A stretch of DNA of 64,000 nt from a bacterium. Lineage in GTDB: Bacteria > Patescibacteriota > Patescibacteriia > Patescibacteriales > UBA12465. This document shows positions 3,168-17,939 of this stretch, one piece after another. The translations under genes were made by a program, and so were the position numbers. The stretch's first letter is position 1. Every line of letters begins with the position of its first letter. The stretch lies in NCBI GenBank assembly GCA_035400585.1, contig DAOMZR010000001.1, positions 306,643 through 370,642 on the forward strand, in the 5' to 3' direction. Below the pieces are notes generated by a model that did not search any database, was not told the DNA's origin, and worked only from the letters and a program-made list of their open reading frames with translations.

Positions 3168-4288
3168 ATTATTCCACCACCCAAAACCTGAGAACCATTA
3201 TAGAAAACAGCGCTTTGGCCAAAAGTTATTGCTCTTTGTTTTCTTAAAAATTTTACTTTTAAAAGTTTTTTCTTGGTTAATGGCTCAACTACACAGGAAA
3301 CAGCCTTATGTCTATAGCGAATAACTACCTTTGTTTTTAGGGGAAATTTTAAATTTTTTTTATTTGTCCAGTAAAAATTTTTAACCAGCATTTCTTTGCC
3401 ATATAAAATTGGGTCATCAAAGTTTTTAACGACATATAAATATTTCTTTTGATAATCAAATGAAGCCGCATAATAAGGACCAGTTCCACCAATATCAATT
3501 CCCCTCCTCTGACCAATAGTATAAAGTGGTAAACCTTGGTGTTCGCCAATAATTTTATTTTCTGGCCAAAGAATAATTTTCCCCGGCTTTAATTTTAGAT
3601 ATTTTTTTAGAAAATCATTATGTCTTTTTCCGGAAATAAAGCAAATTTCCTGACTTTCGTTTTTAGAGGCAACAGGCAAACCAGACTTGGAAGCAATTTG
3701 TCTTACTTTTGGTTTTTTTAAGTTTCCTAAAGGAAATAATAAATTTTTTAATTGTTTTTGTTCCAAAGTATAAAGGAAATAAGACTGATCTTTGTTTTTA
3801 TCAACCCCTTTAAACAAATAAAAACCATCGGGACATTTCTTAATTTTAACATAATGGCCAGTGGCTAAATAATTAAAACCCAGAGATTTGGCATATTCCA
3901 AGAGCCCTCCAATTTTTATTTTTTTATTACAAACAACACAGGGATTGGGAGTGTTCCCTATCTGATATTCATTCAAAAAATTATCAACCACTTCTTTTTT
4001 AAATTTACTAGAAAAATTAAAAGTATAAAAAGGTATTCCTAGCGAAAGGCAAACTTTTTTAGCATCAAGCTGAGCCTCAAGAGAACAACATTTATTTTCT
4101 GAATTTTGTTCTCCTGGTTCCTTCCAAAAGTTTAAAAAAATACCGCTGACATCATAACCATCGTCAATTAAAAGTTTAGCTGCCACAGCCGAGTCAACAC
4201 CACCAGAAATAGCAACTAAAACCTTTTCTTTTATTTTATCTTTTGTTTTGTTATTTGTCTTATTTTTTTTTATCATAAACTTTTTCAA
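3161..4288 (-). CDS. mnmA: tRNA 2-thiouridylase MnmA
   Basis: PP-loop VLVAISGGVDSAVAA, NTPNPCVVCNKKIK, QSYFLY and GQRRGI motifs; typical length. Confidence 0.9.
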   Translation of the reverse strand: MKKFMIKKNKTNNKTKDKIKEKVLVAISGGVDSAVAAKLLIDDGYDVSGIFLNFWKEPGEQNSENKCCSLEAQLDAKKVCLSLGIPFYTFNFSSKFKKEVVDNFLNEYQIGNTPNPCVVCNKKIKIGGLLEYAKSLGFNYLATGHYVKIKKCPDGFYLFKGVDKNKDQSYFLYTLEQKQLKNLLFPLGNLKKPKVRQIASKSGLPVASKNESQEICFISGKRHNDFLKKYLKLKPGKIILWPENKIIGEHQGLPLYTIGQRRGIDIGGTGPYYAASFDYQKKYLYVVKNFDDPILYGKEMLVKNFYWTNKKNLKFPLKTKVVIRYRHKAVSCVVEPLTKKKLLKVKFLRKQRAITFGQSAVFYNGSQVLGGGIIC

Positions 4289-5393
4289 ATATTTTTTGAT
4301 ACTCAGTAGCAGTTTTTTCCCAAGAAAAAAAAGAAATCCTCTTTTTTGATTTTTCTTTTAGTCTAATTCTTAATAGATCATCAGACAACACCATTTTCAT
4401 AGCTTCAAATAAGTTTTCTGGTTTGTCTGGATTAACAAACAAGGCCGAATCTGACAAAACCTCAGGCAAGCTAGAAGTATTACTAGAAATAACTGGAACA
4501 GAAAAATACATGGCTTCAAGTGGCGGAAAACCAAATCCTTCATAAAAAGAAGGGTAAACAAAAACTTGAGCGTTGGAATAAAATAACGGCTTTTCATTTT
4601 CCGAAATATAACCAATAAATCTAATATCATCTTTATATTTAGATCTTTGCCACTCTTTTTTTATCGCAGCTGTTTTCCATCCCCAAGAACCAACTAAAAT
4701 CAATAGAAGGTCAAAACCAGCCCCCCTTAACAAATTATATGCTTTTATCAGGCCAACAATATTCTTTCTGGGCTCAATTGTGCCTAAGTATAAGACATAA
4801 GGCTTGTTAATATTATATTTCAAAGAAAGAGTATCAACAGAAAAATTATTATCTACAGAAAAATTTAATGGAAGCCCAGGATAAACGACTTCTATTTTTT
4901 CATTTTCAACACCCAAAAGTTCAATCAAATCATTCTTGGTGTTGTTAGAAACTGCTATTATTTTATCAAAATCATTAATTTTCTTTTTGATATTAACAGC
5001 TTTGTGCCAAAAATTCTTTCTATCACTAAAAAACTCGGGATAACGAATAAAGGATAGATCGTGAATTGTAATTACTTTTTTAACATTACTAGAAATAGAG
5101 GCAAAATTTATATGAGGCAAGTAAACCAAATCAGACCCGCCAAGAATTTTATCAATTTTTGGCCAAGAAAAATTTTTTTGTAGTAAATAATTAAATAATT
5201 TGTTTGGATAAAAAGTTTGTACAGTATTTTCCTTGCATAATTCTATATTTTTTTTTCGAAAAGAATTACAAAAAAAACGATAAGTGTTTAACTTATCCTT
5301 TTTCAACAAACTATCAAGCAGGTTAAAAGTGAACATGGAAACCCCACTGTAATAGTTATCCATTAAAACTCTGATATCTACCCCTATTTTCAT
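4260..5393 (-). CDS. glycosyltransferase family 4 (GT-B)
   Basis: C-terminal FVYPSFYEGFGFPPLEAMYFSVPVISSN (E-x7-E motif). Confidence 0.85.
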   Translation of the reverse strand: MKIGVDIRVLMDNYYSGVSMFTFNLLDSLLKKDKLNTYRFFCNSFRKKNIELCKENTVQTFYPNKLFNYLLQKNFSWPKIDKILGGSDLVYLPHINFASISSNVKKVITIHDLSFIRYPEFFSDRKNFWHKAVNIKKKINDFDKIIAVSNNTKNDLIELLGVENEKIEVVYPGLPLNFSVDNNFSVDTLSLKYNINKPYVLYLGTIEPRKNIVGLIKAYNLLRGAGFDLLLILVGSWGWKTAAIKKEWQRSKYKDDIRFIGYISENEKPLFYSNAQVFVYPSFYEGFGFPPLEAMYFSVPVISSNTSSLPEVLSDSALFVNPDKPENLFEAMKMVLSDDLLRIRLKEKSKKRISFFSWEKTATEYQKIFEKVYDKKK

Positions 5394-5395
5394 TT

Positions 5396-6517
5396 TTATT
5401 TAAGATTATTGATATTATCTATAAATCTCTTAATATTATCTCTAAAATTATCCAAAGAAAACTTCTTGGCATGATTTCTTATAAATTGACTATTCCATCT
5501 ATTTTTATCTTTTTTATTTTCAGTATAAAATTTTTGTACACAATTTTTAAGAGATTCAACGGTTTGATGCTCAAAAAACATTCCAGTTTCACCATCAATA
5601 ATGGTTTCTATGGCCCCGCCCTTCTTGTAGGCTATAACTGGCCTACCAGAAGCCATTGCCTCTACCTTAGATATGCCAAAATCTTCTTCTTGAGGATGAA
5701 TAAAGGCTAAACACTTACTAAATAATTCGGCTTTGAGCTCATCATTAATTCTTCCTAAAAATTCAATATTTTTACAATTTTTAGCTATTTTCTTTAATCT
5801 CTTTAAATCAACGCCGTCTCCAAAAACTTTAAGTTTATATTCTGGCCCAAGTTGCTTGAAGCATTCTACGGCCAAATCCACCCTTTTATAAGGCGCTAAA
5901 CGACATCCAATTAAAAAATAGTCACCGACATCCTTACTTATAAAAAACTTATCAACTTCCACTGGAGGATATATCAATTCCGAGTCCCTTTTATAGTATT
6001 TTTTTATTCTTTCCTGAACTGTCTTAGAATTAGCTATAAAATAATCGACACGATCAGCCGCTAGTCTGTCCCAAATCCTTATTTTGCTTAAAATCATTGA
6101 GGCAATTTTTTTAAGAAATTTATTATATGGCAATTCATTAATATATTGATGGGTATCACTCCATAAATATCTGGTTGGTGTGTGACAATAACAGATATGC
6201 TTGGTGTGTGGTGTTGTAATAACTCCTTTAGCAAAAGAGCTAGTGTCGGATATAACCAAATCATATTCTCTTAAATCAAAAAACTCTACTGCTATGGGCA
6301 TAAAAGGCAAATACCATTGATAAAAGCGAACGCCTCCTGGCATTCTTTGAATAATTGAAGCATCCACTCTTCTATTTGGATATCTGTTCTCTACATTTTT
6401 TTTATCATAAAGAAGAGTATAGATGGGCGCTTCTTTAAACATTTCAGAAAAAACTTCTAACACTTTTTCAGCTCCTCCGTCTTGTGCTAAATGATCATGA
6501 ATTAAAGCTACTTTCAT
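5396..6517 (-). CDS. glycosyltransferase family 4 (GT-B)
   Basis: IHPQEEDFGISKVEAMASGRPVIAYKKGG (E-x7-E region). 2-nt gap to the preceding GT. Confidence 0.85.
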   Translation of the reverse strand: MKVALIHDHLAQDGGAEKVLEVFSEMFKEAPIYTLLYDKKNVENRYPNRRVDASIIQRMPGGVRFYQWYLPFMPIAVEFFDLREYDLVISDTSSFAKGVITTPHTKHICYCHTPTRYLWSDTHQYINELPYNKFLKKIASMILSKIRIWDRLAADRVDYFIANSKTVQERIKKYYKRDSELIYPPVEVDKFFISKDVGDYFLIGCRLAPYKRVDLAVECFKQLGPEYKLKVFGDGVDLKRLKKIAKNCKNIEFLGRINDELKAELFSKCLAFIHPQEEDFGISKVEAMASGRPVIAYKKGGAIETIIDGETGMFFEHQTVESLKNCVQKFYTENKKDKNRWNSQFIRNHAKKFSLDNFRDNIKRFIDNINNLK

Positions 6518-7332
6518 ATATTTAAATTAAAATTTCTTTGTCTTAAGGCTTCGTAAACAACAATGCCAGCACTAACCGAAACATTAAGAGAATCAACATT
6601 AGCTATCATTGGAATTCTAATATTTTCCACCTTTCTTTTTTGCCAATCATCACTTATACCAAAAGATTCTGTTCCAAAAACTATAGCCGAGGGCTTGGTA
6701 AAATCGACATCAAAATGACTTTTTTTACCTTTTAAGGTTGTAATAAAAACATTTAAATTATTTTTTTCTAACCAAGAAAAAGTTTCATTAACTGATGACA
6801 AAACTAGCGGCATAGAAAAAATAAATCCAGTACTAGAACGAATAACATTAGGGCTGTAAATATCTGTTTTTTGATCATTTAAAATTAGCAAATCAACACC
6901 AGCAACATAAGCAGTTCTGATTATGGCTCCCAAGTTTCCAGGTTTTTCAACCGATTCTAAAACTAAAATTAATGGATTTTTTTTGAGAACAACGTCTTCT
7001 AATTTTAAAAACTTTGATTTTAAAATAGCCAAACAACCATCAGGGTTTTTCTTGTAGGAAATTTTTTCAAAAACTTTAGCTGAAACATTATAATTTCTTT
7101 TAGATTTCTGAGATATTTCTAAAATAGCTTCTTCTTTTTTAATAAATTCTGGGCAATAGAAAAACTCCTCTATTTCCCAAGAAAGACGAATGGCTTCTTC
7201 AATTTCTCTTTGCCCATCAACAATGATAATACCAGCCTTTTGTCTGTCGCGACTATCTTTTATGAGCTTAGCGATGTCTTTTATTTTTTGATTGGCCGGA
7301 CTGGTTATTTCTAGTGAATCATTTTGGTTCAT
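6514..7332 (-). CDS. SpoU/TrmH-family RNA 2'-O-methyltransferase
   Basis: VEKPGNLGAIIRTA, IVFGTESFGIS, IPMIANVDSLNVSVSAGIVVYE: the three SPOUT motifs. 4-nt overlap with the upstream GT. Confidence 0.85.
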   Translation of the reverse strand: MNQNDSLEITSPANQKIKDIAKLIKDSRDRQKAGIIIVDGQREIEEAIRLSWEIEEFFYCPEFIKKEEAILEISQKSKRNYNVSAKVFEKISYKKNPDGCLAILKSKFLKLEDVVLKKNPLILVLESVEKPGNLGAIIRTAYVAGVDLLILNDQKTDIYSPNVIRSSTGFIFSMPLVLSSVNETFSWLEKNNLNVFITTLKGKKSHFDVDFTKPSAIVFGTESFGISDDWQKRKVENIRIPMIANVDSLNVSVSAGIVVYEALRQRNFNLNI

Positions 7333-7366
7333 AAAACAAAATAATATTTTTTAATTCGCGTTAAAT

Positions 7367-8806
7367 TTATTCTGCTTTTCTGTTTTTAATAACTGCTAGT
7401 GGCGTTCTAAACAAAATGGATAAGTCCAAAAGCAATGACCAGTTCTCTATATAATAGATATCTAATTTAACTTCTTCCTCAAAAAGCAAGTCACTACGTC
7501 CAGAAACTTGAGCTAAACCGGTTATTCCTGGCTTAACAGTTAGTGTTTTCTTGTGGTGTTGTTCATATTTAGCAACCTCTTCTGGTAAATGTGGTCTAGG
7601 CCCGACAATGCTCATCCTGCCAATTAAAACTAAAAACAATTCTGGCAGTTCATCAATACTCCATCTTCTTATAAACCTACCGACACGAGTGACGCGAGGA
7701 TCATCGGCAATTTTAATCATTGGTCCGTCTTTTCTTAAATTTTTATCTATTAATTCATTATAGCGCATACTATCCATTCCCGGTAGCATTGATCTAAACT
7801 TAAAATATTTAAACAATTGACCCCCTTGTCCAACCCTAAAAACAGGAGAACCATCATCTCTTTTGGAAAAGAAAATTGGACCGTGAGAATCTAGTTTGAT
7901 CATTAACATTGTTAAAAGAATAATCGGAGAAAATATTATTATTAAAATAAGCGAAATAATAATATCAAACAATCTCTTAACTATTCTCCCCCAACCATCA
8001 AGAGTTGTTTTCTTAACCTCAACAACCGGAACCCCAGCCATTTCTGAAACCTCTGTTCTTAAAACCTTAACCTCCAAAAGATCAGCTACATACCTGAAAA
8101 TAACATGATGTTCATTAGCAAAATCATACAATCTCAAAGTTTCGACCTTACTAAGATTAGGGTCACTTTGAATTATTTCATCAATTCTCTCTTTTTTAGA
8201 TTCATTTTCTTTATTAAATTCTTTAATAAACTCGGCCAATTCTTTAGAGGTATCTAGAGAAAAATCCCGAACCCTTTTAATCACCTTAAACCCAGAATAT
8301 TTATTGCTAAAAAAATCTTTAATCAAATTATCGCCAGTTTTGCTGGAACCAACTAAAATAATATTTTTTACACCAATACCATAAGCGTAAAGAATTTTCT
8401 GTAACCAATGAATTATTGTTCTGCCAACAGAAACATAAACAATAGCCAAAATCCAAGCACTCAAAACTATAAATCTAGAATCAAATAATTCTCTTTGAAA
8501 AAATATTAAAAGCATCACTAAAACAAAACCGGCCGAACAAGCTAAAAATGTTCTATAAATTTCTTGACTTAATCGGCCTCTGTTTTGAGAATACATGGCT
8601 GAAAAAGCAAAGATAATAATCCATAAAAAAGCTATAAATAAAACAATCTCAAAATAGCTAATAAATGGCAAATTAAAAATAACCGGGCGAATTTCGGTTG
8701 TAAATTTAGAAAATCTGATAAAATAAGCCGACACACCGGCCAGAACTAACAAAACAAAATCTAGAGGAACTAAAATAAAAGAAAAAAACAATTCAGATTT
8801 TTTCAT
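7367..8806 (-). CDS. polyprenyl-phosphate sugar phosphotransferase (WbaP/bacterial sugar transferase family)
   Basis: N-terminal multi-TM region, then KRLFDIIISLILIIIFSPI...FKFRSM...DELPELFLVLIGRMSIVGPRP. Confidence 0.85.
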   Translation of the reverse strand: MKKSELFFSFILVPLDFVLLVLAGVSAYFIRFSKFTTEIRPVIFNLPFISYFEIVLFIAFLWIIIFAFSAMYSQNRGRLSQEIYRTFLACSAGFVLVMLLIFFQRELFDSRFIVLSAWILAIVYVSVGRTIIHWLQKILYAYGIGVKNIILVGSSKTGDNLIKDFFSNKYSGFKVIKRVRDFSLDTSKELAEFIKEFNKENESKKERIDEIIQSDPNLSKVETLRLYDFANEHHVIFRYVADLLEVKVLRTEVSEMAGVPVVEVKKTTLDGWGRIVKRLFDIIISLILIIIFSPIILLTMLMIKLDSHGPIFFSKRDDGSPVFRVGQGGQLFKYFKFRSMLPGMDSMRYNELIDKNLRKDGPMIKIADDPRVTRVGRFIRRWSIDELPELFLVLIGRMSIVGPRPHLPEEVAKYEQHHKKTLTVKPGITGLAQVSGRSDLLFEEEVKLDIYYIENWSLLLDLSILFRTPLAVIKNRKAE

Positions 8807-8821
8807 AGTTTAAATTTGATT

Positions 8822-9190
8822 TAATTTAATTAAGTTTAAGAATAAGCCGGATTCTGTCGAGGATGATTATTTATCTAGATTTATTGTTGCCAATAAATTC
8901 TGGCGAGTTACTTTTTACGTATAAATACGCTTTACTCTTGCTCCTTGATAGGGTTTACCATGGCACTTCCGTCACCGGAAGGCAAATGTTGTGGCTAAAA
9001 CCTCAACAAACTTTTCACCTTTCACCGTCGAAACGGCTAGTATTGTCTCTGTGGCACTTTCCCTCGCCTTAAGGCGGGTGGGTGTTACCCACTATCATCA
9101 CGAATTTCTTTGAAATTCTAGGAGTCCGGACTTTCCTCTTTTTTTATTAAAAATAACAAAAAAAGCAATCATCTACTTTAACTTAATCAT
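8822..9190 (-). ncRNA. rnpB: RNase P RNA (bacterial type A-like)
   Basis: Minus strand contains GAGGAAAGTCCGGACTCC (P4 5' strand), AGGGAAAGTGCCACAGAGA, GGTGAAAGGTGAAAAG and ACAGAATCCGGCTTAT (P4 3' strand). P2 GATGATT/AATCATC and an AT-rich P3 hairpin are present. Ends are approximate (+/-10 nt). Confidence 0.88.
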
Positions 9191-9225: not shown

Positions 9226-9254
9226 TAAAAAAAGAACGCCCAATCGAGCGTTCT
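9226..9254 (-). terminator. terminator of 9271..9639
   Basis: Minus strand AGAACGC-TCGATTGG-GCGTTCT followed by T7. Confidence 0.6.
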
Positions 9255-9270
9255 GTAAAAAAACATAAAA

Positions 9271-9639
9271 TTAATCACGACATAAACGATATTCTTTCAG
9301 CGCCATAGCTTGAATTTGTTCAAAGCTAAGTCTGCTGTTTTCTGGATTAAGCATTATTATAGATTCTAACATGCTTAGCTCCATGTCAAAAAAATCTTCC
9401 TCTAAGCTTTCTCGGGACAAACCAAGTCTATAGGCCTCATAATCCAAATGGTCTTGATAGTCAAGCCAAGGATCACTATCTGAATACCTAAAATCAAGAA
9501 AACCTTCGGAAAACAAGCAATTGTTAAAAAGACTGCACCCTTCGCAAAAAGCGCAATCAACCTCTGAAAGATCGTTGACAATTTGCTTTTTAATGTCTCT
9601 GGCCTTAATTGGCCGGCTGAATGGCTGAAGATTGTTCAT
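9271..9639 (-). CDS. small acidic Cys-motif protein (122 aa), unknown function
   Basis: ATG start with its own consensus promoter and terminator. C29-x2-C32-x2-C35-x5-C41 cluster, then a D/E-rich region. No TM segment. Confidence 0.65.
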   Translation of the reverse strand: MNNLQPFSRPIKARDIKKQIVNDLSEVDCAFCEGCSLFNNCLFSEGFLDFRYSDSDPWLDYQDHLDYEAYRLGLSRESLEEDFFDMELSMLESIIMLNPENSRLSFEQIQAMALKEYRLCRD

Positions 9640-9686
9640 GTCATCTATTTTTTTATTGTTAATTTACGAAACTATATCTGTTGCTG

Positions 9687-9715
9687 ATTATATCATATTT
9701 AATGAATTTTGTCAA
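9687..9715 (-). promoter_or_regulatory. consensus promoter for 9271..9639
   Basis: Minus strand TTGACA (9715..9710), 17 nt, TATAAT (9692..9687) preceded by TGA (extended -10-like). Confidence 0.6.
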
Positions 9716-9742
9716 TAGAAATTTAGTGCTGTCGCCAAAAAT

Positions 9743-12700
9743 CTAGTTAAATAAAGGTTTTTTATCTAAATACATCTTTTCAATATCATAATTATCTAAA
9801 ATTCCCCACCATAGACTTAGCTCATCCAAATAGGAGTGATTACCCTGAGAAGAAATTATAATTTTATCAATATATTCATAATTCAACCAATTTTTGTTAA
9901 TTTTTTTCTTTAGAAAACCGTCAATATATAAATTTAATTCAAAACGATAATAATCATAAACCAAAACTAGGTGATGCCAATTACCATCATTCAATCCAAG
10001 ATTATTTATATTTTCATCAATTTGGCAAACTAAATCATTGAAGTAATAGAAAAAATCATTATTTAATTTAATACCAAATAATTTTTTTTCTTCAGATATA
10101 ATTTTTAAATCAAAAGGGCTTAAAATATTATTTAGCATATTTCTTTTTAACCAAAGAGATAAAGATAAATCTTGTTTCTCCTTAAAACCGACGACAGAGT
10201 TATTAATTGAAAAATCAGAACTAGACCCTATGTTTAAATAAAAATTATTATCTTCTTGTATTACAAAATTTTTATCAACTGTTAGTTTAGAATTTGTATT
10301 TTCTTTATTTAAATCACTAAAAATAATTTTATCATCTTCAATCTCTTGAAAAGGATTGTCATTAAAATTGAAATAAGAAAAATTTTCTGCTTGTTTGAAT
10401 TTTTTATTTTGACAATCAAAAGAATTAAACGGTAAATTTTTTTTATAAAAATTTAATAATTCTGATTGCTTCAGGGGTTTTTTAAATATAACAATTTCAT
10501 CAAAAATTGTTTCATTGCCAGTTGCCACCAAAGACAAACTATCAACTTCGGTTATAAAGCTTGAACCAATATTCTTTCTTAAGACTTCTACCCCATCACT
10601 ATATAACGACCAATAATCTGAAGATTTATTAATCACTAAGGCGAATTGATGCCAATCACTTCCAACTGGCCACTCAAGATCTTCCAGTCTTTGAGAAACG
10701 TTGGGCAAACCTTTAAACTCGGAATATGATCCGTAAAGTTGAATCTGAAAATAAGAATCATTGCTGGAATTTAAAAACCTAATAACTGGTCGAGAATTGG
10801 GGTGCAGTAATTTATATTTAAACAATAAAGTAAAATTATTGGAATCAAAAAGCTCGCTGATTTTAGTGTTTATATTACTTTGACCTTGTCGGTGGCTAAT
10901 TGAACAATAATTATTTTCTTTAACCCAAGAAACATTTAAACCTTCTATATTGTTTTTACCGGCAAAATCATAAGCTAAATCACCCTGACATTCATTAAAA
11001 TGCCATAGATTTATGATATTATCAGCAACTAAGGCCTCATCTAAACAATAATTATAAGAATAAATATTGCTTTGATTACTATTTTCCTCTCCATTATTGT
11101 TTTGATCCTGACCATTGTTTTGATCTAAGTTGCAATAATCTCCTTGAAGAATATTTAAGTCCAAAAGAACAAAATCAAAAAAATTATTTTTTGAGTTAAA
11201 ACCATTTCCTAAAGAAAAGTGTTCACAATCTTCGGCCATTAAAATTGCGCTTGAATCAGCTTGAGCTTTTCTAATTAAAATATGGTTATCTAAAATTTCT
11301 GGAGCAGGCAAAACTTTATAATAAGTTGCACTACCAAAACCAACTTTATCAATAATGTCTTCATCATTATCAGAAGAAACGACTCCCGTTGATAAATAAA
11401 TAGTATAGCCATTCCCATTGAAGGTGAACTCATTGCGAATGCTTATAGATTGAGCCTTGCCCAAAATTTCGGGTGAAGAGTTAGCTCTAGTTATTAAGTA
11501 TTTACCTCCGGCTGGAACAATTAATCCACCAGGATAATAAGCATCTGATAAGTTGCCAAATCGCAACATTAAAGATGGCACGGTTCCGGTTTTAGTTTTG
11601 TACAAACGATATCCTTTGTTTTCCAAATTAATATCAATTTCGTTAGGATTATAAAGCTCTATATAATCATTTTTATCAGTAGCATAAATTCTGCTAATTA
11701 AAATTGGCAGATAGTTTTCCGCTTGTTGATTATTTTGATTTTCGGATTGTTGTTCGTTATCTATTTCATCACTACTTGTATCGTTTTCCTTATTATCACT
11801 AACATCATTATTTATTTCATTGCTTATTTGGTTATTATTTTGACTATTTATACTTAAATCAATTAAGACAAAGTCAAATAAATTATTTCCACTATCGTAG
11901 GAATTATCTGAACTAAAATCAGAACCCCCTTCTTTCATACTAGATGGGGTCGACGTACTTTGAGCTTTACGTACTAATAAATTATTATCTAAAATTTCAA
12001 CCGCCGGGAATCTTTCAAAATATTTTGCCGAACCAAAACCAACTTTATCAATAATGTCTTCATCTTCGTTCCCAGAAACAACTCCGCCAGATAAATAAAT
12101 AGTATATCCGTTGCCAGTAAAAGAAAACTCACTTCTGTTTGCTATGGCATTGGCTTTTTTCTTTATTTCATCAGAGGCAGAACTTCTGGCTATTAGATAT
12201 TTTCCTTTAGCTGGAATTATTACTCCTTTCGGATAAATGCCATCACTTAGATTGCCAATTCTAATTATAATCGAAGGAGTGGCTGATGTTTTTGTTTTAT
12301 AAAGCCTGACACCAGACTCTTCCAAGTCTATAGAAACATCATTAGGATTATATATCTCTATATAGTCGTCGCTTAATGTACTATAGATTTTACTAATTGA
12401 TAAATTTTTCTTTAGAACATCAAAATTCTCAACATTATCAGTCTTGGCACTACTTGCAAAAACCTCTGATTCATCAAATTCCGAAACATTGTTATCGGGC
12501 AAAGAATTAGAAAATGAATTAGAATTTTTTTCTGTTTGATCATGAGAGGCAAAAATTTCATTATTAGACTTAAGAACATCACTTAAAGCATTAAAACTAG
12601 CCGAGGAATCATCAACGCTTATTAAACTTTTAACTTTACCGGATAAGACAGAATCTTCTTCTTTGTTGTTTAACTGTTTGTTAACCTCAATTTCCTTCGA

Positions 12701-13741
12701 ATTATCAATAAATTCATCGTTCTTTTTTAAAGATGATTCGGTTTCTAAATTAATATAGTCCTGCTCACTATTACTTTCCTCATTTAATAAGACATATTCA
12801 TTCTTATTTTTTCTAAAAACGGAAGCGACTTTGTCAAAAATCTTACTTATAGAAGATAAAGGATTGTTTATGAAGCTCCATTTAAAAATCATAGCAACTT
12901 CTGGGACTTTGCCTCTAATTTCTTTATCGGAAAAATCACTACTAAGATCAATGTCAACCTCAACATCTTCTAAATTATCTTGCCAAAATTGAGTTAAAGG
13001 AAAGAAAAAATATCTTTCACCATCATATTCATAGCCGGAATTAAAACCAATTAACTCTGGAAAAGGAATAATGGTTTTCTTGTTAGCTGAAATTTTAGAG
13101 AATTCATAATCCTTAGACAAGCAGTCTTTATTGTCTTTATTCTCTATACTATAATTATCAAAACCATCTGGCGTTATATTAATGCCATAAAAACGAGGAT
13201 CATATTCTAAAAAAGAAAGATTGTAAGGATTGGAAATATTAGCGCTCTCATATATTTTTTCAGTTAAACCAACACAAGTCCATTCCCCGTCAGAAGGTCC
13301 TTTTTGTTTTTTAAAATCAAAATCATAAGATAAATTTTGCTCAGCCAATGTTTTGGCTGTTTGCACTATTTTTAATCTTTGAATTTCGCTAATATTTTTT
13401 GGGATTTTAGCCCCAACCAACTCCTCACCATTTTTAGTATTAATAAAACGATTAGCCGGCACCTTAATCAAGCCATTGGGCATAGCTTCAACAATATAAT
13501 CCACACCGTTTTCCTTACCAACATAAATGGCTACATGTCCGGTATAAATATTTTTAATTATTCCATTTTTAGTCTCTATTAATTGACTTGTGTTATAACC
13601 ATATAAATTACCCCCACCAGAAGTTCTATAAAGCAAAGTGCCAACAGGCATGGCCTTAACTGAGTGAACAAAGAAAAAACCAAAAAACAAAACGCTAATA
13701 AATAGCGCTTGTCGGTTTTTATTTAAAAACCTAAAAATCAT
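9743..13741 (-). CDS. giant secreted/anchored surface protein (1332 aa): permuted NlpC/P60 (YiiX/C92-like) + 2 LTD-like repeats + 2 LamG-like domains
   Basis: N-terminal hydrophobic segment. GHVAIYVG...IVEAMPNG...EWTCVGLTEKIY places His before Cys. Two ~184-aa repeats (DDYIEIYNP...GYTIYL...IIDKVGFG). C-terminal WHQFALV / WHHLVLV...DELSLW lectin-like modules. Confidence 0.85.
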   Translation of the reverse strand: MIFRFLNKNRQALFISVLFFGFFFVHSVKAMPVGTLLYRTSGGGNLYGYNTSQLIETKNGIIKNIYTGHVAIYVGKENGVDYIVEAMPNGLIKVPANRFINTKNGEELVGAKIPKNISEIQRLKIVQTAKTLAEQNLSYDFDFKKQKGPSDGEWTCVGLTEKIYESANISNPYNLSFLEYDPRFYGINITPDGFDNYSIENKDNKDCLSKDYEFSKISANKKTIIPFPELIGFNSGYEYDGERYFFFPLTQFWQDNLEDVEVDIDLSSDFSDKEIRGKVPEVAMIFKWSFINNPLSSISKIFDKVASVFRKNKNEYVLLNEESNSEQDYINLETESSLKKNDEFIDNSKEIEVNKQLNNKEEDSVLSGKVKSLISVDDSSASFNALSDVLKSNNEIFASHDQTEKNSNSFSNSLPDNNVSEFDESEVFASSAKTDNVENFDVLKKNLSISKIYSTLSDDYIEIYNPNDVSIDLEESGVRLYKTKTSATPSIIIRIGNLSDGIYPKGVIIPAKGKYLIARSSASDEIKKKANAIANRSEFSFTGNGYTIYLSGGVVSGNEDEDIIDKVGFGSAKYFERFPAVEILDNNLLVRKAQSTSTPSSMKEGGSDFSSDNSYDSGNNLFDFVLIDLSINSQNNNQISNEINNDVSDNKENDTSSDEIDNEQQSENQNNQQAENYLPILISRIYATDKNDYIELYNPNEIDINLENKGYRLYKTKTGTVPSLMLRFGNLSDAYYPGGLIVPAGGKYLITRANSSPEILGKAQSISIRNEFTFNGNGYTIYLSTGVVSSDNDEDIIDKVGFGSATYYKVLPAPEILDNHILIRKAQADSSAILMAEDCEHFSLGNGFNSKNNFFDFVLLDLNILQGDYCNLDQNNGQDQNNNGEENSNQSNIYSYNYCLDEALVADNIINLWHFNECQGDLAYDFAGKNNIEGLNVSWVKENNYCSISHRQGQSNINTKISELFDSNNFTLLFKYKLLHPNSRPVIRFLNSSNDSYFQIQLYGSYSEFKGLPNVSQRLEDLEWPVGSDWHQFALVINKSSDYWSLYSDGVEVLRKNIGSSFITEVDSLSLVATGNETIFDEIVIFKKPLKQSELLNFYKKNLPFNSFDCQNKKFKQAENFSYFNFNDNPFQEIEDDKIIFSDLNKENTNSKLTVDKNFVIQEDNNFYLNIGSSSDFSINNSVVGFKEKQDLSLSLWLKRNMLNNILSPFDLKIISEEKKLFGIKLNNDFFYYFNDLVCQIDENINNLGLNDGNWHHLVLVYDYYRFELNLYIDGFLKKKINKNWLNYEYIDKIIISSQGNHSYLDELSLWWGILDNYDIEKMYLDKKPLFN
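11153..12403 (-). repeat. intragenic tandem duplication (two ~552-nt domain repeats, period 699 nt)
   Basis: aa 447-630 and 680-863 are colinear. An identical 32-nt run CCAAAACCAACTTTATCAATAATGTCTTCATC occurs at 11334..11365 and 12033..12064. Confidence 0.8.
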
Positions 13742-13792
13742 AACTCCAAAAAAATTAATTTATATTTAAATCATAGCTTTTAAAGGCTAATC

Positions 13793-14782
13793 CTAGTTTA
13801 AAGAATTGTAGTAATTTCCCCACTCTAACTTATCAATTTCTGGATAAACATATTCTTTTTCCGAATAAGAATTTAAAATATTAGCTATCAAAAATTTACT
13901 AAACTTATCACACTCTTCCTGCAAATACAATTTTTCCAAAAGTTTCAAAGAATCTTCCCCAGCATCCCCCAAAACAAAGTCCGATAAAGAGAATACGACC
14001 AGACTACGTAAATCATAACTGTTAAAATTTAAAAATGTTTCTTGCAAAAAATTAAAATATTTTAAATAAGAATTATCTTTAAGCAAAATTTTTTCTTTGT
14101 TATTGTTTATTTTTAAAATAATATTTTTAATTAAAGATCGATCGTTTGCTTGGCTTAAAAAATTTAAAACAAAATCCAAATCAACAGCATCTAACAAAAA
14201 TAGAAAAGACAATGATTCTTCGGCTTCTGACAAACTTAAATCAGCATTCAACAATTTATTTTTTATTTCTTCTAAATAATCAAGATAATCCAATCTATCT
14301 TTAAAGTTTAAAATCAGTCTCTGCTTGATTTGATGGGAACCAGATTGATTTTTAATAAATTCTTGTGCTTTATTTAAAAAATAATCCGAGTTACTAACAT
14401 CATTTTTTAAAATTATATCCAATACTTTCAATCTCCATCTCAAATTATCTTCTTCATTAAAAATGACGGAAAATAAACGATTCAAAGCCCCTTTGTTAGT
14501 TAAAGATTCAACTATGGCTTTTTCATAACCTAATTGCTCAAAATAACAAAAATCTCGACAATTTGGATTGTTATAAATAGAAACAGCCAAGCGATTGATC
14601 GCTAGATGAGCTTTTATTGGTTGTGGCCAAAATATCCACCAGGAACCATAAAAACTAAAAAACAAAAAAATAAAAACCAACAATAGCAAAGATAAAATAA
14701 AAAGCATTATTTTTCGCCTATTATTTATTTTATTCTTTATTTTCTCCAAAAGAATTGATATTTTTTTTAATACATTTTTCAT
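13793..14782 (-). CDS. membrane-anchored helical protein (329 aa), unknown function
   Basis: ATG start. One N-terminal TM (ILSLLLLVFIFLFFSF), the rest Leu/Asn-rich and helical. 51-nt gap with no terminator before the giant protein gene. Confidence 0.65.
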   Translation of the reverse strand: MKNVLKKISILLEKIKNKINNRRKIMLFILSLLLLVFIFLFFSFYGSWWIFWPQPIKAHLAINRLAVSIYNNPNCRDFCYFEQLGYEKAIVESLTNKGALNRLFSVIFNEEDNLRWRLKVLDIILKNDVSNSDYFLNKAQEFIKNQSGSHQIKQRLILNFKDRLDYLDYLEEIKNKLLNADLSLSEAEESLSFLFLLDAVDLDFVLNFLSQANDRSLIKNIILKINNNKEKILLKDNSYLKYFNFLQETFLNFNSYDLRSLVVFSLSDFVLGDAGEDSLKLLEKLYLQEECDKFSKFLIANILNSYSEKEYVYPEIDKLEWGNYYNSLN

Positions 14783-14807
14783 ATTTTAAAAGTTAATAAA
14801 AATCTTG

Positions 14808-14882
14808 GGCGCGATTATTAAGGTTCTTTTATTTCTAAAAAAGAAAAATCAATTTTAGTAATAAAAAATAAATAATCGCGCC
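14808..14882. repeat. 12-bp GC-rich perfect inverted repeat with 51-nt AT loop
   Basis: GGCGCGATTATT (14808..14819) and AATAATCGCGCC (14871..14882). Lies 25 nt upstream of the ATG at 14782. Confidence 0.5.
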
Positions 14883-14963
14883 AAATCGTTTTCTTTTATT
14901 ATTTAAACAATAAAAAAATATTACTTTAAAAACGAACAAGATTGTACTGGCCTAAAAATAACA

Positions 14964-15028
14964 AAAGAGTCGTAAAAACTCTTTAAAATAAAAATAAAAA
15001 ATAACTAAACAAAATGTTTAGTTATTTT
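14964..15028 (-). terminator. tandem terminator hairpins after 15058..15681
   Basis: AAAATAACTAAAC-5 nt-GTTTAGTTATTTT (14997..15028) and AAAGAGT-7 nt-ACTCTTT (14964..14984), both in T-rich context on the minus strand. Confidence 0.55.
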
Positions 15029-15057: not shown

Positions 15058-15681
15058 TTATTTTGTATTTTTTAAATCTTCCTTAATCATTTCAACTATC
15101 TCTGGAAACTCAGAAACTTTAAAATGTCCATTTTTACCATTTAAAATAATAATATTGGCTTTCTTTAATTTTTTCCTATATTTTTCGGCATGAGACACCG
15201 GTACAACTTCATCGTCTTGAGAAAAAAGAAGATTTACATTCCTTGAACAATTGTCCAATCTTGATAAATTGACTGGCAATTTAAAACCACCAACCAAATC
15301 CTCGCCTGGCAGAGAATTATCATAAGGCGGACAAACTAAATAAAGTGATAAAATTCTTTTAGGAAATTTATTTTCTGATAAATATTTAGCCAAAAATATT
15401 CCGCCCAGAGAGCCACCTATTAAAATTATATTATTTTTAAGATAAGGAAAATGTCTTTCAAAATGAATTTTCCAGTCCTCGTATTTGGCATTGTCAGCCA
15501 ATGGCATACGAGGCTTAATAATATCAAATTTATTTCCCAAACTATTTTTTAAAAATTCTCCATGCCATTTATTTTTTTCTTCAATAGAAATCTCACGGTT
15601 TTTTAAAAAATTTAAATAATCTTTTTTATTTTTAAAAGTTTCACCACCGTGGATATATAGTATTTGTAATTTATTTTTCAT
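15058..15681 (-). CDS. alpha/beta serine hydrolase (YdeN/RBBP9-like)
   Basis: Nucleophile elbow GGSLGG, later SQDDEVV and NGHF, consistent with a Ser-Asp-His triad. About 200 aa. Confidence 0.75.
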   Translation of the reverse strand: MKNKLQILYIHGGETFKNKKDYLNFLKNREISIEEKNKWHGEFLKNSLGNKFDIIKPRMPLADNAKYEDWKIHFERHFPYLKNNIILIGGSLGGIFLAKYLSENKFPKRILSLYLVCPPYDNSLPGEDLVGGFKLPVNLSRLDNCSRNVNLLFSQDDEVVPVSHAEKYRKKLKKANIIILNGKNGHFKVSEFPEIVEMIKEDLKNTK

Positions 15682-17120: not shown

Positions 17121-17939
17121 CTAAGCTTTTTCCTCTGGCTCTAAATTAAATAATTGTTTATAGTAACTGGTAAATAAATTACTTTTTTCTTCTAGACCAC
17201 TATCGCCTCCAATTGACCTCCATTGATCAACGGTAGTATATTTTTCATCAATTCTAAATTTTTCTTTAGGAAGCAATCTATTAACATTATTATCTGTGGA
17301 TAAAAGAACGGAAGATGCCAGACCTATATGACGTGAAGGACAGCCACCAACAACCCTAGAAACATCGGACTCATTAACATAAAAAGAATAAACCATTTTA
17401 TCTGCTGATAATTTTTCTAATAAATAAGCAAATCCCTTCTTAAAATCTATATTGTTTAAATCACTACCACCAGAAGGAAAAATTAAAAAAACACCACCGG
17501 CATTAATATGATCTACCACCTCCTTTAAAACTAACAATAATTCTTTTGTATTTTTACTAGCTGGTACAAAAAAATTGGAACCAACCATTTTCTGCAAATC
17601 GGAAACATATTCTTCGCGAATCATAATTTTAATATCACTTCTATTAATAACTCTCATAACTGCCGGGATGTCTATATATCCAGGATGATTTGATATTATA
17701 ACTCCTGCCTCGTTATTTAATTTTTCTCTAAAGTCATGTTTTTCTTGAGAATTTTCCAATGTATAATCCGGTTTAATATTCAACATATCAAAATACCTAT
17801 CGAGTCTTTTATGTACAGCGCTTATTCCTTCGGTTGAAATTTCTGATTCTAAATTACCAAAAATTTTTTCTTTTGATTTTTCATGAACCGCCCTTTTAAT
17901 TGTTTCAAAATTTTTCATATTTTTATAATTAAATTTCAC
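17121..17939 (-). CDS. PlsC-like (lysophospholipid) acyltransferase family protein
   Basis: H-x4-D motif in ISNHPGYIDIP and IFPSGG block, as in glycerolipid acyltransferases. Confidence 0.65.
   Translation of the reverse strand: MKFNYKNMKNFETIKRAVHEKSKEKIFGNLESEISTEGISAVHKRLDRYFDMLNIKPDYTLENSQEKHDFREKLNNEAGVIISNHPGYIDIPAVMRVINRSDIKIMIREEYVSDLQKMVGSNFFVPASKNTKELLLVLKEVVDHINAGGVFLIFPSGGSDLNNIDFKKGFAYLLEKLSADKMVYSFYVNESDVSRVVGGCPSRHIGLASSVLLSTDNNVNRLLPKEKFRIDEKYTTVDQWRSIGGDSGLEEKSNLFTSYYKQLFNLEPEEKA

Follow-up and report, generated by a model that had tools for sequence, protein, structure and literature searches.

A conserved two-gene operon of Patescibacteria pairs a YaeF/YiiX-type multidomain protein with a membrane-anchored helical partner

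The DNA analysed here is a 64,000-nucleotide stretch of a patescibacterial genome (GenBank assembly GCA_035400585.1, contig DAOMZR010000001.1), referred to below as the window, which has a G+C content of ~30% and carries nearly all of its genes on the minus strand. A first-pass annotation had singled out three open reading frames (ORFs) and described them as a three-gene surface module. All three are present at the coordinates and on the strand that it gave:

13793..14782, minus strand: partner gene, 329 aa
9743..13741, minus strand: big gene (whole coding sequence including the stop codon), encoding a multidomain protein of 1332 aa that is predicted to be secreted
9271..9639, minus strand: small ORF, encoding an acidic protein of 122 aa with a Cys motif

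The unit is, however, a two-gene operon (13793..14782 and 9743..13741, minus strand) that is conserved across a large Patescibacteria clade. The two genes are separated by 51 nt and the spacing lacks a terminator-like site, as the first-pass annotation had it. The operon begins after a conserved terminator hairpin of the upstream gene, which was seen by eye. A homologue of the partner gene lies directly upstream of the big gene in all 24 related loci (designated L001 and so on) that have upstream sequence, with E-values of 1e-26 to 1e-125 against a family hidden Markov model (HMM), always on the same strand and at a distance of 4-165 nt. This HMM was built from the fetched loci; a word-indexed search, even when profile-based, gave just 11 relatives. 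We regard the universal, tight pairing of the two genes as the strongest evidence that they form a functional unit. The 122-aa ORF, on the other hand, was found again in L001 alone (43% identity). Conservation of the flanking genes in relatives therefore holds for the upstream partner and fails for the downstream ORF, and with it goes the idea of a module of three.

The 1332-aa product is divided as follows:

13652..13741, minus strand: signal peptide, aa 1-30, with a predicted signal peptidase I site (pattern-based) between VKA and MP
12803..13651, minus strand: catalytic head, aa 31-313, made up of a permuted NlpC/P60 core (Pfam match at aa 62-171 = 13229..13558) and a family-specific extension of ~140 aa
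13535..13537, 13487..13489, 13325..13327 and 13274..13276, minus strand: codons of the catalytic residues H69, E85, Y139 and C156, respectively
12398..12802, minus strand: linker 1, aa 314-448, a low-complexity stretch (S 18%, N 15%, E 13%) that cannot be aligned between family members
11849..12397, minus strand: lamin tail domain (LTD) repeat 1, aa 449-631 (Pfam LTD match at aa 445-552; 31.0 bits alone, just below the cut-off of 34.3)
11150..11698, minus strand: LTD repeat 2, aa 682-864 (Pfam LTD match at aa 677-801; 34.8 bits alone, which passes 34.3)
10460..10882, minus strand: LamG/concanavalin-like module 1, aa 954-1094 (Laminin_G_3, 22.1 bits alone, which does not reach the cut-off; family members have a median identity of 28% here)
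9815..10219, minus strand: LamG/concanavalin-like module 2, aa 1175-1309 (Laminin_G_3, 31.6 bits alone, above the cut-off)

When the whole protein was searched, all three Pfam profiles proposed beforehand scored above their curated cut-offs: Peptidase_C92 at aa 62-171 (E 3.3e-7, 31.0 bits versus 27), LTD in two stretches (E 2.3e-15, 57.3 bits versus 34.3) and Laminin_G_3 in two stretches (E 1e-11, 45.7 bits versus 27.6). The two Ig-like LTD repeats are 60% identical to each other across 183 aa (E 4e-80), and the two LamG jelly-roll modules align weakly (24% identity across 79 aa, E 3e-4). The two lamin-tail-like repeats, the two C-terminal LamG/concanavalin-like modules and the N/Q/D-rich linkers of the first-pass annotation are thus all recognisable; the linkers are disordered and biased to S, N, Q, D and E (linker 2, for example, has 28% N and 14% Q), such that S and E are enriched as well. 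Neither the head nor the LTD and LamG regions had a significant match among PDB sequences in single-sequence searches, and the full-length family profile gave a weak jelly-roll match alone, in the region of LamG module 2, to the extracellular arabinanase 5hon (E 7e-4).

The protein belongs to a family of >240 homologues, and among the top 120 nearly all share the same set of Pfam domains and a length of ~1100-1570 aa. The NCBI pipeline labels the protein 'YiiX/YebB-like N1pC/P60 family cysteine hydrolase' and its relatives 'LamG-like jellyroll' or 'lamin tail domain-containing' proteins; NCBIfam holds no family for the 1332-aa, the 329-aa or the 122-aa protein. Identity across the family falls from a median of 55.5% in the head to 48% in the LTD and 29% in the LamG regions, which suggests a constant chemistry combined with a variable outer ligand.

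Homologues that carry a name are assigned to Patescibacteria or Falkowbacteria. Many records of metagenome-assembled genomes that carry the locus (L001, L003-L010, L012, L014, L016, L018-L021) are titled 'uncultured Gammaproteobacteria bacterium'; as the locus is typical of Patescibacteria, these titles are probably placeholders or wrong labels. At three loci, a frameshift or an in-frame stop breaks the big gene into two ORFs (L008 1377-5332, L017 9512-13842 and L023 7992-11664), and L017 has an additional paralogous fragment of 692 aa upstream. The split genes could be assembly errors, pseudogenes or the outcome of phase variation.

In an alignment of 111 homologues, aa 31-300 are the best-conserved stretch of the big protein, with ~40 invariant positions, and H69, E85, Y139 and C156 are each invariant. 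Their order, His, Glu ... Tyr, Cys, is circularly permuted, as it is in YiiX, whose catalytic tetrad was defined as H49, E64, Y115 and C128 by Xu et al. (PMC3142127). On the head alone, Peptidase_C92 scores 34.2 bits (cut-off 27), and the profile is passed by 14 of 16 diverse heads of the family. The NLPC_P60 profile of Pfam has no match in the big protein at E<=1, and the Cys-before-His order of canonical enzymes is not found in it. An AlphaFold2 model of the head, made from the 111-homologue alignment, is a compact domain spanning aa 33-313, with a mean predicted local distance difference test (pLDDT) score of 92.6 and a predicted template-modelling score (pTM) of 0.87; pLDDT drops after aa 313, where linker 1 starts. 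When this model was compared with the PDB by Foldseek, the sole significant match was E. coli YiiX (2if6; E 5.8e-5, probability 1.0), the next having an E-value of 0.6. Sequence identity between the two is ~16%. A head-only profile run against PDB sequences likewise retrieved 2if6 (E 1e-3) with the tetrad in register, H69/E85/Y139/C156 aligning with H49/E64/Y115/C128 of YiiX (chain numbering + 16).

The first-pass annotation had pointed to a His-before-Cys pair at H69 and C156 and had read it as the mark of a circularly permuted enzyme of the YiiX/YaeF type. The profile search, the permuted papain fold and the catalytic tetrad all agree with YiiX. The head is a genuine but atypical, divergent member of the YaeF/YiiX branch with an intact tetrad. 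It is also characteristic of a narrow subfamily: when 1.84 billion representative proteins were searched exhaustively with phmmer, the extended head was found in 132 clusters, nearly all of which have it at residues 27-300 of proteins that are 1000-2500 aa long.

The closest known relatives in kind are E. coli YiiX (2if6) and Bacillus cereus BcPPNE (3kw0) of PF05708, with which the head shares the His-before-Cys permutation and the His/Glu/Tyr/Cys tetrad in register. These, however, are stand-alone proteins of ~200 aa, whereas here the core, lengthened by a conserved extension of ~140 aa, is the N-terminal module of a secreted protein of ~1300 aa that also contains LTD and LamG domains and has an obligate partner in the membrane. 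In YiiX, a fatty acid occupies the S1 pocket, which is narrow and hydrophobic, and an N-acyl amidase activity was proposed for the enzyme (PMC3142127). The Tox-Act1/TseH effectors of type VI secretion systems and the LRAT and HRASLS proteins have the same permuted core, and their chemistry, measured to be that of a phospholipase A or an acyltransferase, runs through a Cys acyl-intermediate: LRAT and HRASLS act as either, and Tox-Act1 is a phospholipase that cleaves phosphatidylglycerol and phosphatidylethanolamine (PMC12994826). They belong to other clades of the superfamily and are delivered by a type VI system or are cytosolic and membrane-bound, rather than being Sec-secreted multidomain proteins; unlike for the effectors, no immunity-gene context is seen here.

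Since all permuted NlpC/P60 enzymes with a known activity or ligand in the studies consulted act on fatty-acyl groups (PMC3142127, PMC12994826, PMC7387801), a lipid or lipidated substrate seems likelier for the head than peptidoglycan, and the 'wall- or lipid-acting' head of the first-pass annotation can, by this analogy, be narrowed toward fatty-acyl linkages. The reading that we favour, with about even confidence, is that the big protein may be an exported, surface-retained acyl-hydrolase or acyl-transferase that acts on a fatty-acyl bond. A quite unlikely alternative is that the head works as an amidase on peptidoglycan or peptides, in the way of the canonical NlpC/P60 autolysins, serving growth or division of the cell's own wall or the breaching of a host wall, with the LTD and LamG domains binding wall. 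The superfamily does consist mostly of peptidoglycan peptidases, Pfam terms C92 an 'amidase', and secretion together with carbohydrate-type binding modules would suit a wall enzyme; moreover, BcPPNE was crystallised with a bound lysine (PMC3142127), and lytic enzymes have been proposed to take part in the attack of Patescibacteria on their hosts (PMC11665869). The permuted catalytic order and a match to YiiX instead of NLPC_P60 speak against a wall hydrolase, as do the S1 site of permuted enzymes, which is narrow, hydrophobic and ill-suited to a peptide (PMC3142127), and the permuted members with a measured activity in the studies consulted, all of which act on acyl lipids (PMC12994826, PMC7387801). 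In addition, Pfam found no SH3b, LysM or PG_binding domain in the big protein.

Export is suggested by the N-terminus. There is one hydrophobic segment in the big protein (aa 11-33), and the putative cleavage site, of the canonical Ala-x-Ala-like type, has Ala at position -1 in all 77 homologues with an MP.GT motif, C, A, V, S or T at -3, and Met at +1. Judged from sequence, the segment looks like a cleavable Sec signal and not an anchor; of the 'anchor/signal' that had been annotated, the second term is the one that fits. The mature protein would be 148 kDa in size and acidic (pI 4.6). It has no C-terminal anchor, LPXTG motif or conserved lipobox, so that retention at the surface, if any, would be non-covalent.

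The partner (13793..14782, minus strand) was correctly anticipated to be a membrane-anchored helical protein. It has a K/R-rich, predicted cytoplasmic N-terminus with nine Lys or Arg among the first 25 residues, then one transmembrane helix (~aa 21-52) and a predicted extracytoplasmic, all-alpha domain of HEAT/ARM-like repeats, an arrangement that implies an N-in/C-out topology. The AlphaFold2 model is all helical (pLDDT 86.8), and Foldseek matched it to generic solenoids alone (AP-2, Integrator, importins; E 0.02-0.2, high probability, low TM-score). No family match was found in Pfam (repeat families included), NCBIfam or PHROG. Four residues, C75 and C79 (forming a CxxxC motif), W321 and Y324, are strictly invariant among 25 members. 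Public annotations differ in the start of the protein, giving 304, 322 or 329 aa; we favour the 329-aa form because the K-rich N-terminus is kept in homologues.

A precedent for a secreted YiiX-like permuted NlpC/P60 enzyme that works with a membrane protein comes from Staphylococcus aureus, where LnsA, a signal-peptide-bearing YiiX-like protein of 189 aa, strictly needs the membrane partner LnsB for N-acylation of lipoproteins (PMC7387801). By extension, the secreted head and its membrane partner might remodel the envelope of the cell that makes them, by moving acyl chains from membrane phospholipid onto its own lipoproteins, glycolipids or lipid-linked glycan. The strict co-conservation of the membrane partner in the 24 loci would fit such a scheme, as would neighbouring genes for a polyprenyl-linked glycan. 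We nevertheless regard it as distinctly improbable, given how the two systems differ in build. CPBP-family proteins are polytopic membrane proteins, and the partner, having one transmembrane helix, an all-alpha solenoid model and no Pfam or NCBIfam family, is not one of them. LnsA is not known to have LTD, LamG or other binding modules, whereas the big protein has ~1000 aa of LTD and LamG sequence, the fastest-evolving part of which suggests a variable external ligand. LnsB, for its part, is CPBP-like (PMC7387801), and a single-pass HEAT-like protein without a family match stands in its place here; lnsA and lnsB are also non-adjacent, whereas the two genes described here form an operon.

Under the acyl-enzyme reading that we prefer, the protein would be exported by Sec and its signal cleaved, leaving a 148-kDa protein with no anchor of its own. 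Its retention at the surface might be due to the membrane-anchored solenoid partner, to binding of the LTD and LamG domains to envelope glycan, or to the two together. With H69 and E85 activating it, C156 would attack a fatty-acyl ester or amide to give an acyl-thioester. The acyl group would then pass either to water, which would make the enzyme a phospholipase A or an N-acyl amidase, or to an acceptor, which would make it an acyltransferase, in the manner of LRAT, HRASLS, Tox-Act1, LnsA and YiiX. Target specificity would be supplied by the fast-evolving LamG modules. The target could be the cell's own envelope, including the glycan that the flanking Wzy_C, Bac_transf and GT4 genes described below would produce, or else a host or neighbouring cell.

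Several points weigh against this reading. The idea of an acyl substrate leans, by analogy, on relatives of <20% identity. The global similarity of the head model to 2if6 is modest (TM-score of 0.33 by query length and 0.58 by target length), and the extension at aa 170-313 (~140 aa) is conserved and has no structural counterpart, such that the substrate specificity could differ. Cleavage of the signal was judged by sequence pattern alone. Finally, the synteny of the conserved block described next may in part be plain collinearity, as the block includes the housekeeping gene rnpB.

The pair is embedded in a locus for surface-glycan assembly. The order of the conserved block is Wzy_C/TPR, partner, big protein, RNase P RNA, Bac_transf, and two family 4 glycosyltransferases (GT4). 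Its members in the window and two examples from relatives of the gene that opens it are:

8827..9185, minus strand: RNase P RNA (class A; Rfam, 201 bits), a housekeeping neighbour and not a functional part of the unit
4260..8806, minus strand: glycan-assembly neighbours together (Bac_transf, GT4 and GT4; Pfam)
7367..8806, minus strand: Bac_transf phosphoglycosyl transferase (Pfam)
6514..7332, minus strand: SpoU methylase, interposed in the close clade of the window only
5396..6517, minus strand: GT4 glycosyltransferase (Pfam)
4260..5393, minus strand: GT4 glycosyltransferase (Pfam)
L011 4522-6783 and L026 6533-8803: Wzy_C/TPR gene, also present in 13 other loci

The Bac_transf-GT4-GT4 set is syntenic in 17 of the 19 loci with downstream sequence; the remaining two, L005 and L008, keep the pair without the downstream glycan genes. 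The protein of ~750 aa that combines Wzy_C (O-antigen ligase/polymerase family) with TPR is encoded upstream of the partner gene in 15 loci, and tblastn did not find it in the 64-kb window. In L026, a relative that is 36% identical and lies on a contig of 822 kb, the precomputed annotation shows the same block order and unrelated genes beyond both ends of the block. RNase P RNA follows the big gene directly in nine of 11 further loci and is absent from L005 and L008. Its presence within the block means that not every member of the block is functionally related.

This neighbourhood raises the possibility that the big protein has a chiefly structural role at the surface, as a glycoprotein or adhesin linked to the glycan genes around it, and that the enzyme head is accessory, for example in self-processing or self-lipidation. 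In one version, the protein would be a substrate of O-glycosylation, with the S-rich linkers as acceptor sites, Bac_transf as initiator, the two GT4 enzymes, and Wzy_C/TPR as an oligosaccharyl-transferase or ligase; in another, it would be a lectin-like layer protein docking on the polymer made by the flanking genes. S-layer glycosylation clusters of Geobacillus and Paenibacillus, in which a Bac_transf initiator (WsaP) and a Wzy_C-type transferase (WsaB) are encoded beside the S-layer gene, offer a parallel. The glycan genes that bound the block on both sides, with Wzy_C/TPR upstream in 15 loci, Bac_transf-GT4-GT4 downstream in 17 and unrelated genes beyond in L026, argue in favour, and the long S/N-rich linkers and two lectin-type modules would fit. 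Yet no other part of the protein is as conserved as the head, whose tetrad is perfect in 111 of 111 sequences; this argues for an essential enzymatic role and not for decoration. Furthermore, rnpB interrupts the block, the block contains no flippase, the Wzy_C gene was not found in the window, and L005 and L008 retain the pair without downstream glycan genes. In our judgement, a mainly structural role is unlikely.

A few observations on the same neighbourhood can be added. The position of rnpB between the surface-protein operon and the glycan genes is unusually stable, and ORF lists place spurious ORFs over the RNase P RNA (8863..9072, plus strand). Five loci (L005, L006, L009, L017 and L018) have a second, divergent Bac_transf gene on the opposite strand. 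Upstream, the operon adjoins a gene for a Ser_hydrolase protein, a cytoplasmic alpha/beta hydrolase (15058..15681, minus strand), which is syntenic in L001-L003 only, and a PlsC-type acyltransferase gene (17121..17939, minus strand) lies 3.4 kb upstream. These are possible lipid-handling genes near the operon and are not conserved with it.

LTDs joined to hydrolases have been described elsewhere. Shewanella ExeM and Vibrio Xds likewise combine a signal peptide, an LTD and a hydrolase in one exported protein; bacterial LTDs typically occur with membrane-associated hydrolases and oligosaccharide-binding domains, and it has been proposed that they direct proteins to membranes or membrane-associated structures (PMC6085458). 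The catalytic domains of ExeM and Xds are, however, nucleases (EEP and OB folds) and not cysteine acyl-enzymes, and they have a single LTD, in contrast to the tandem pair followed by two LamG modules seen here. Taken singly, the domains are already known, as is this class of chemistry. What was not described before is the extended head subfamily, its fusion to LTD and LamG domains that each occur in tandem, the solenoid protein as an obligate partner, the setting in a glycan locus and a structured leader RNA (see below); a literature search on the big-protein family in Patescibacteria found no publication.

A large part of bacterial diversity belongs to Patescibacteria, which are unable to synthesise lipids, and a 2024 review flagged the route by which lipids are acquired as a gap (PMC11665869). 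The family could be relevant to lipid or surface-sugar handling in these bacteria: with a conserved exported enzyme, lectin-type modules and a constant membrane partner, it is a concrete, clonable candidate for lipid handling. A speculative and rather unlikely extension of the acyl-enzyme reading is that a surface-tethered phospholipase A or acyltransferase docks through its LamG modules on a neighbouring or host cell and supplies membrane lipid; fatty-acyl chains would be stripped or transferred, lysolipids would be produced, and the conserved leader RNA would regulate the process. If the target were instead the cell's own envelope, the locus would link an acyl-enzyme to the Wzy_C, Bac_transf and GT4 glycan pathway in bacteria whose envelope chemistry is barely described. 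Were the protein merely another wall hydrolase, the finding would be routine.

The operon also brings a new structured leader RNA. In the 275 nt upstream of the partner gene, the window is 91% identical to L001-L003, as compared with 57-62% identity between the partner proteins themselves. Two elements were recognised in this region:

14955..14982, minus strand: promoter-like region, consisting of a hairpin, AGAGT...ACTCT (14982..14966), a T-run, TG (14963..14962), one further nucleotide, and the hexamer TATTTT (14960..14955)
14803..14888, minus strand: leader hairpin of 86 nt in three tiers, namely the clamp GGCGCGAUUAU...AUAAUCGCGCC, an AU-rich middle stem and a variable apical stem
L002 6851-6936, L018 6801-6888, L017 8359-8444 and others: leader hairpin in relatives

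The leader hairpin has a fold z-score of -6.6, and 13 of 13 leader sequences fold individually into the same shape. In their alignment, 83% of the cells at 32 pairs are paired, as compared with ~48% when the partners are slid. At 17 pairs both sides change, and the observed values were reached in none of 500 shuffles. One clamp pair is changed on both sides to a non-pair (C-A) in L002 and L003, a blemish on the structure. A covariance model found one copy per locus, solely upstream of the partner gene, and the copy in the window remained unique with filters off. When run with its default filters, the model failed to recover four of the sequences it was trained on, and calls of absence in other loci accordingly rest on alignments and not on the model alone. 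By this standard, the hairpin is present in the subclade of the window and absent from the distant loci L011, L013-L016 and L020-L026. A search of Rfam returned nothing at gathering scores, the matches being noise-level miRNA models alone (E 0.07-1). We considered whether the hairpin might be a dispersed repeat or a terminator, and rejected both, as there is one copy per locus, the coding strand scores far better and the sequence is unique in the window. Candidate roles are an RNase III site, a protein-binding site or attenuation.

The TGnTATTTT element in the promoter-like region reads as an extended -10, from which we infer promoter function. The core TATnnT is invariant in 13 aligned loci, a TGnTATAGT-type motif occurs at the equivalent place in distant loci, and the box is present in all loci examined (for example, L026 8960-8995). 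The arms of the small hairpin next to it covary (AGAGCC/GGCTCT, AGAATC/GATTCT, AGAGTC/GACTCT), and the box itself, TGnTAT(A/T)nT, is far better conserved than the downstream coding sequence. The conserved box might combine a promoter with an operator or with a terminator that overlaps it.

At the other end of the operon, the 122-aa ORF was rightly described as a small acidic Cys-motif protein that follows the big gene: its product has a pI of 4.4, a CxxCxxCx5C motif and no transmembrane segment, and it has no NCBIfam or PHROG family match. The ORF is flanked by signals of its own:

9715..9687, minus strand: promoter of the 122-aa ORF, TTGACA-17-TGnTATAAT, a 12/12 match to the sigma-70 consensus with an extended -10
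9254..9233, minus strand: strong terminator of the 122-aa ORF

It is a self-contained transcription unit, an accessory insertion unrelated to the two-gene unit. In distant loci the RNase P RNA begins 60-130 nt after the big gene, leaving no space for such an ORF. The interval from the big gene to rnpB takes variable cargo: L002 has a pair encoding a RelB antitoxin and a YafQ toxin there (12087-12650), and the 122-aa ORF itself occurs on many near-identical contigs.

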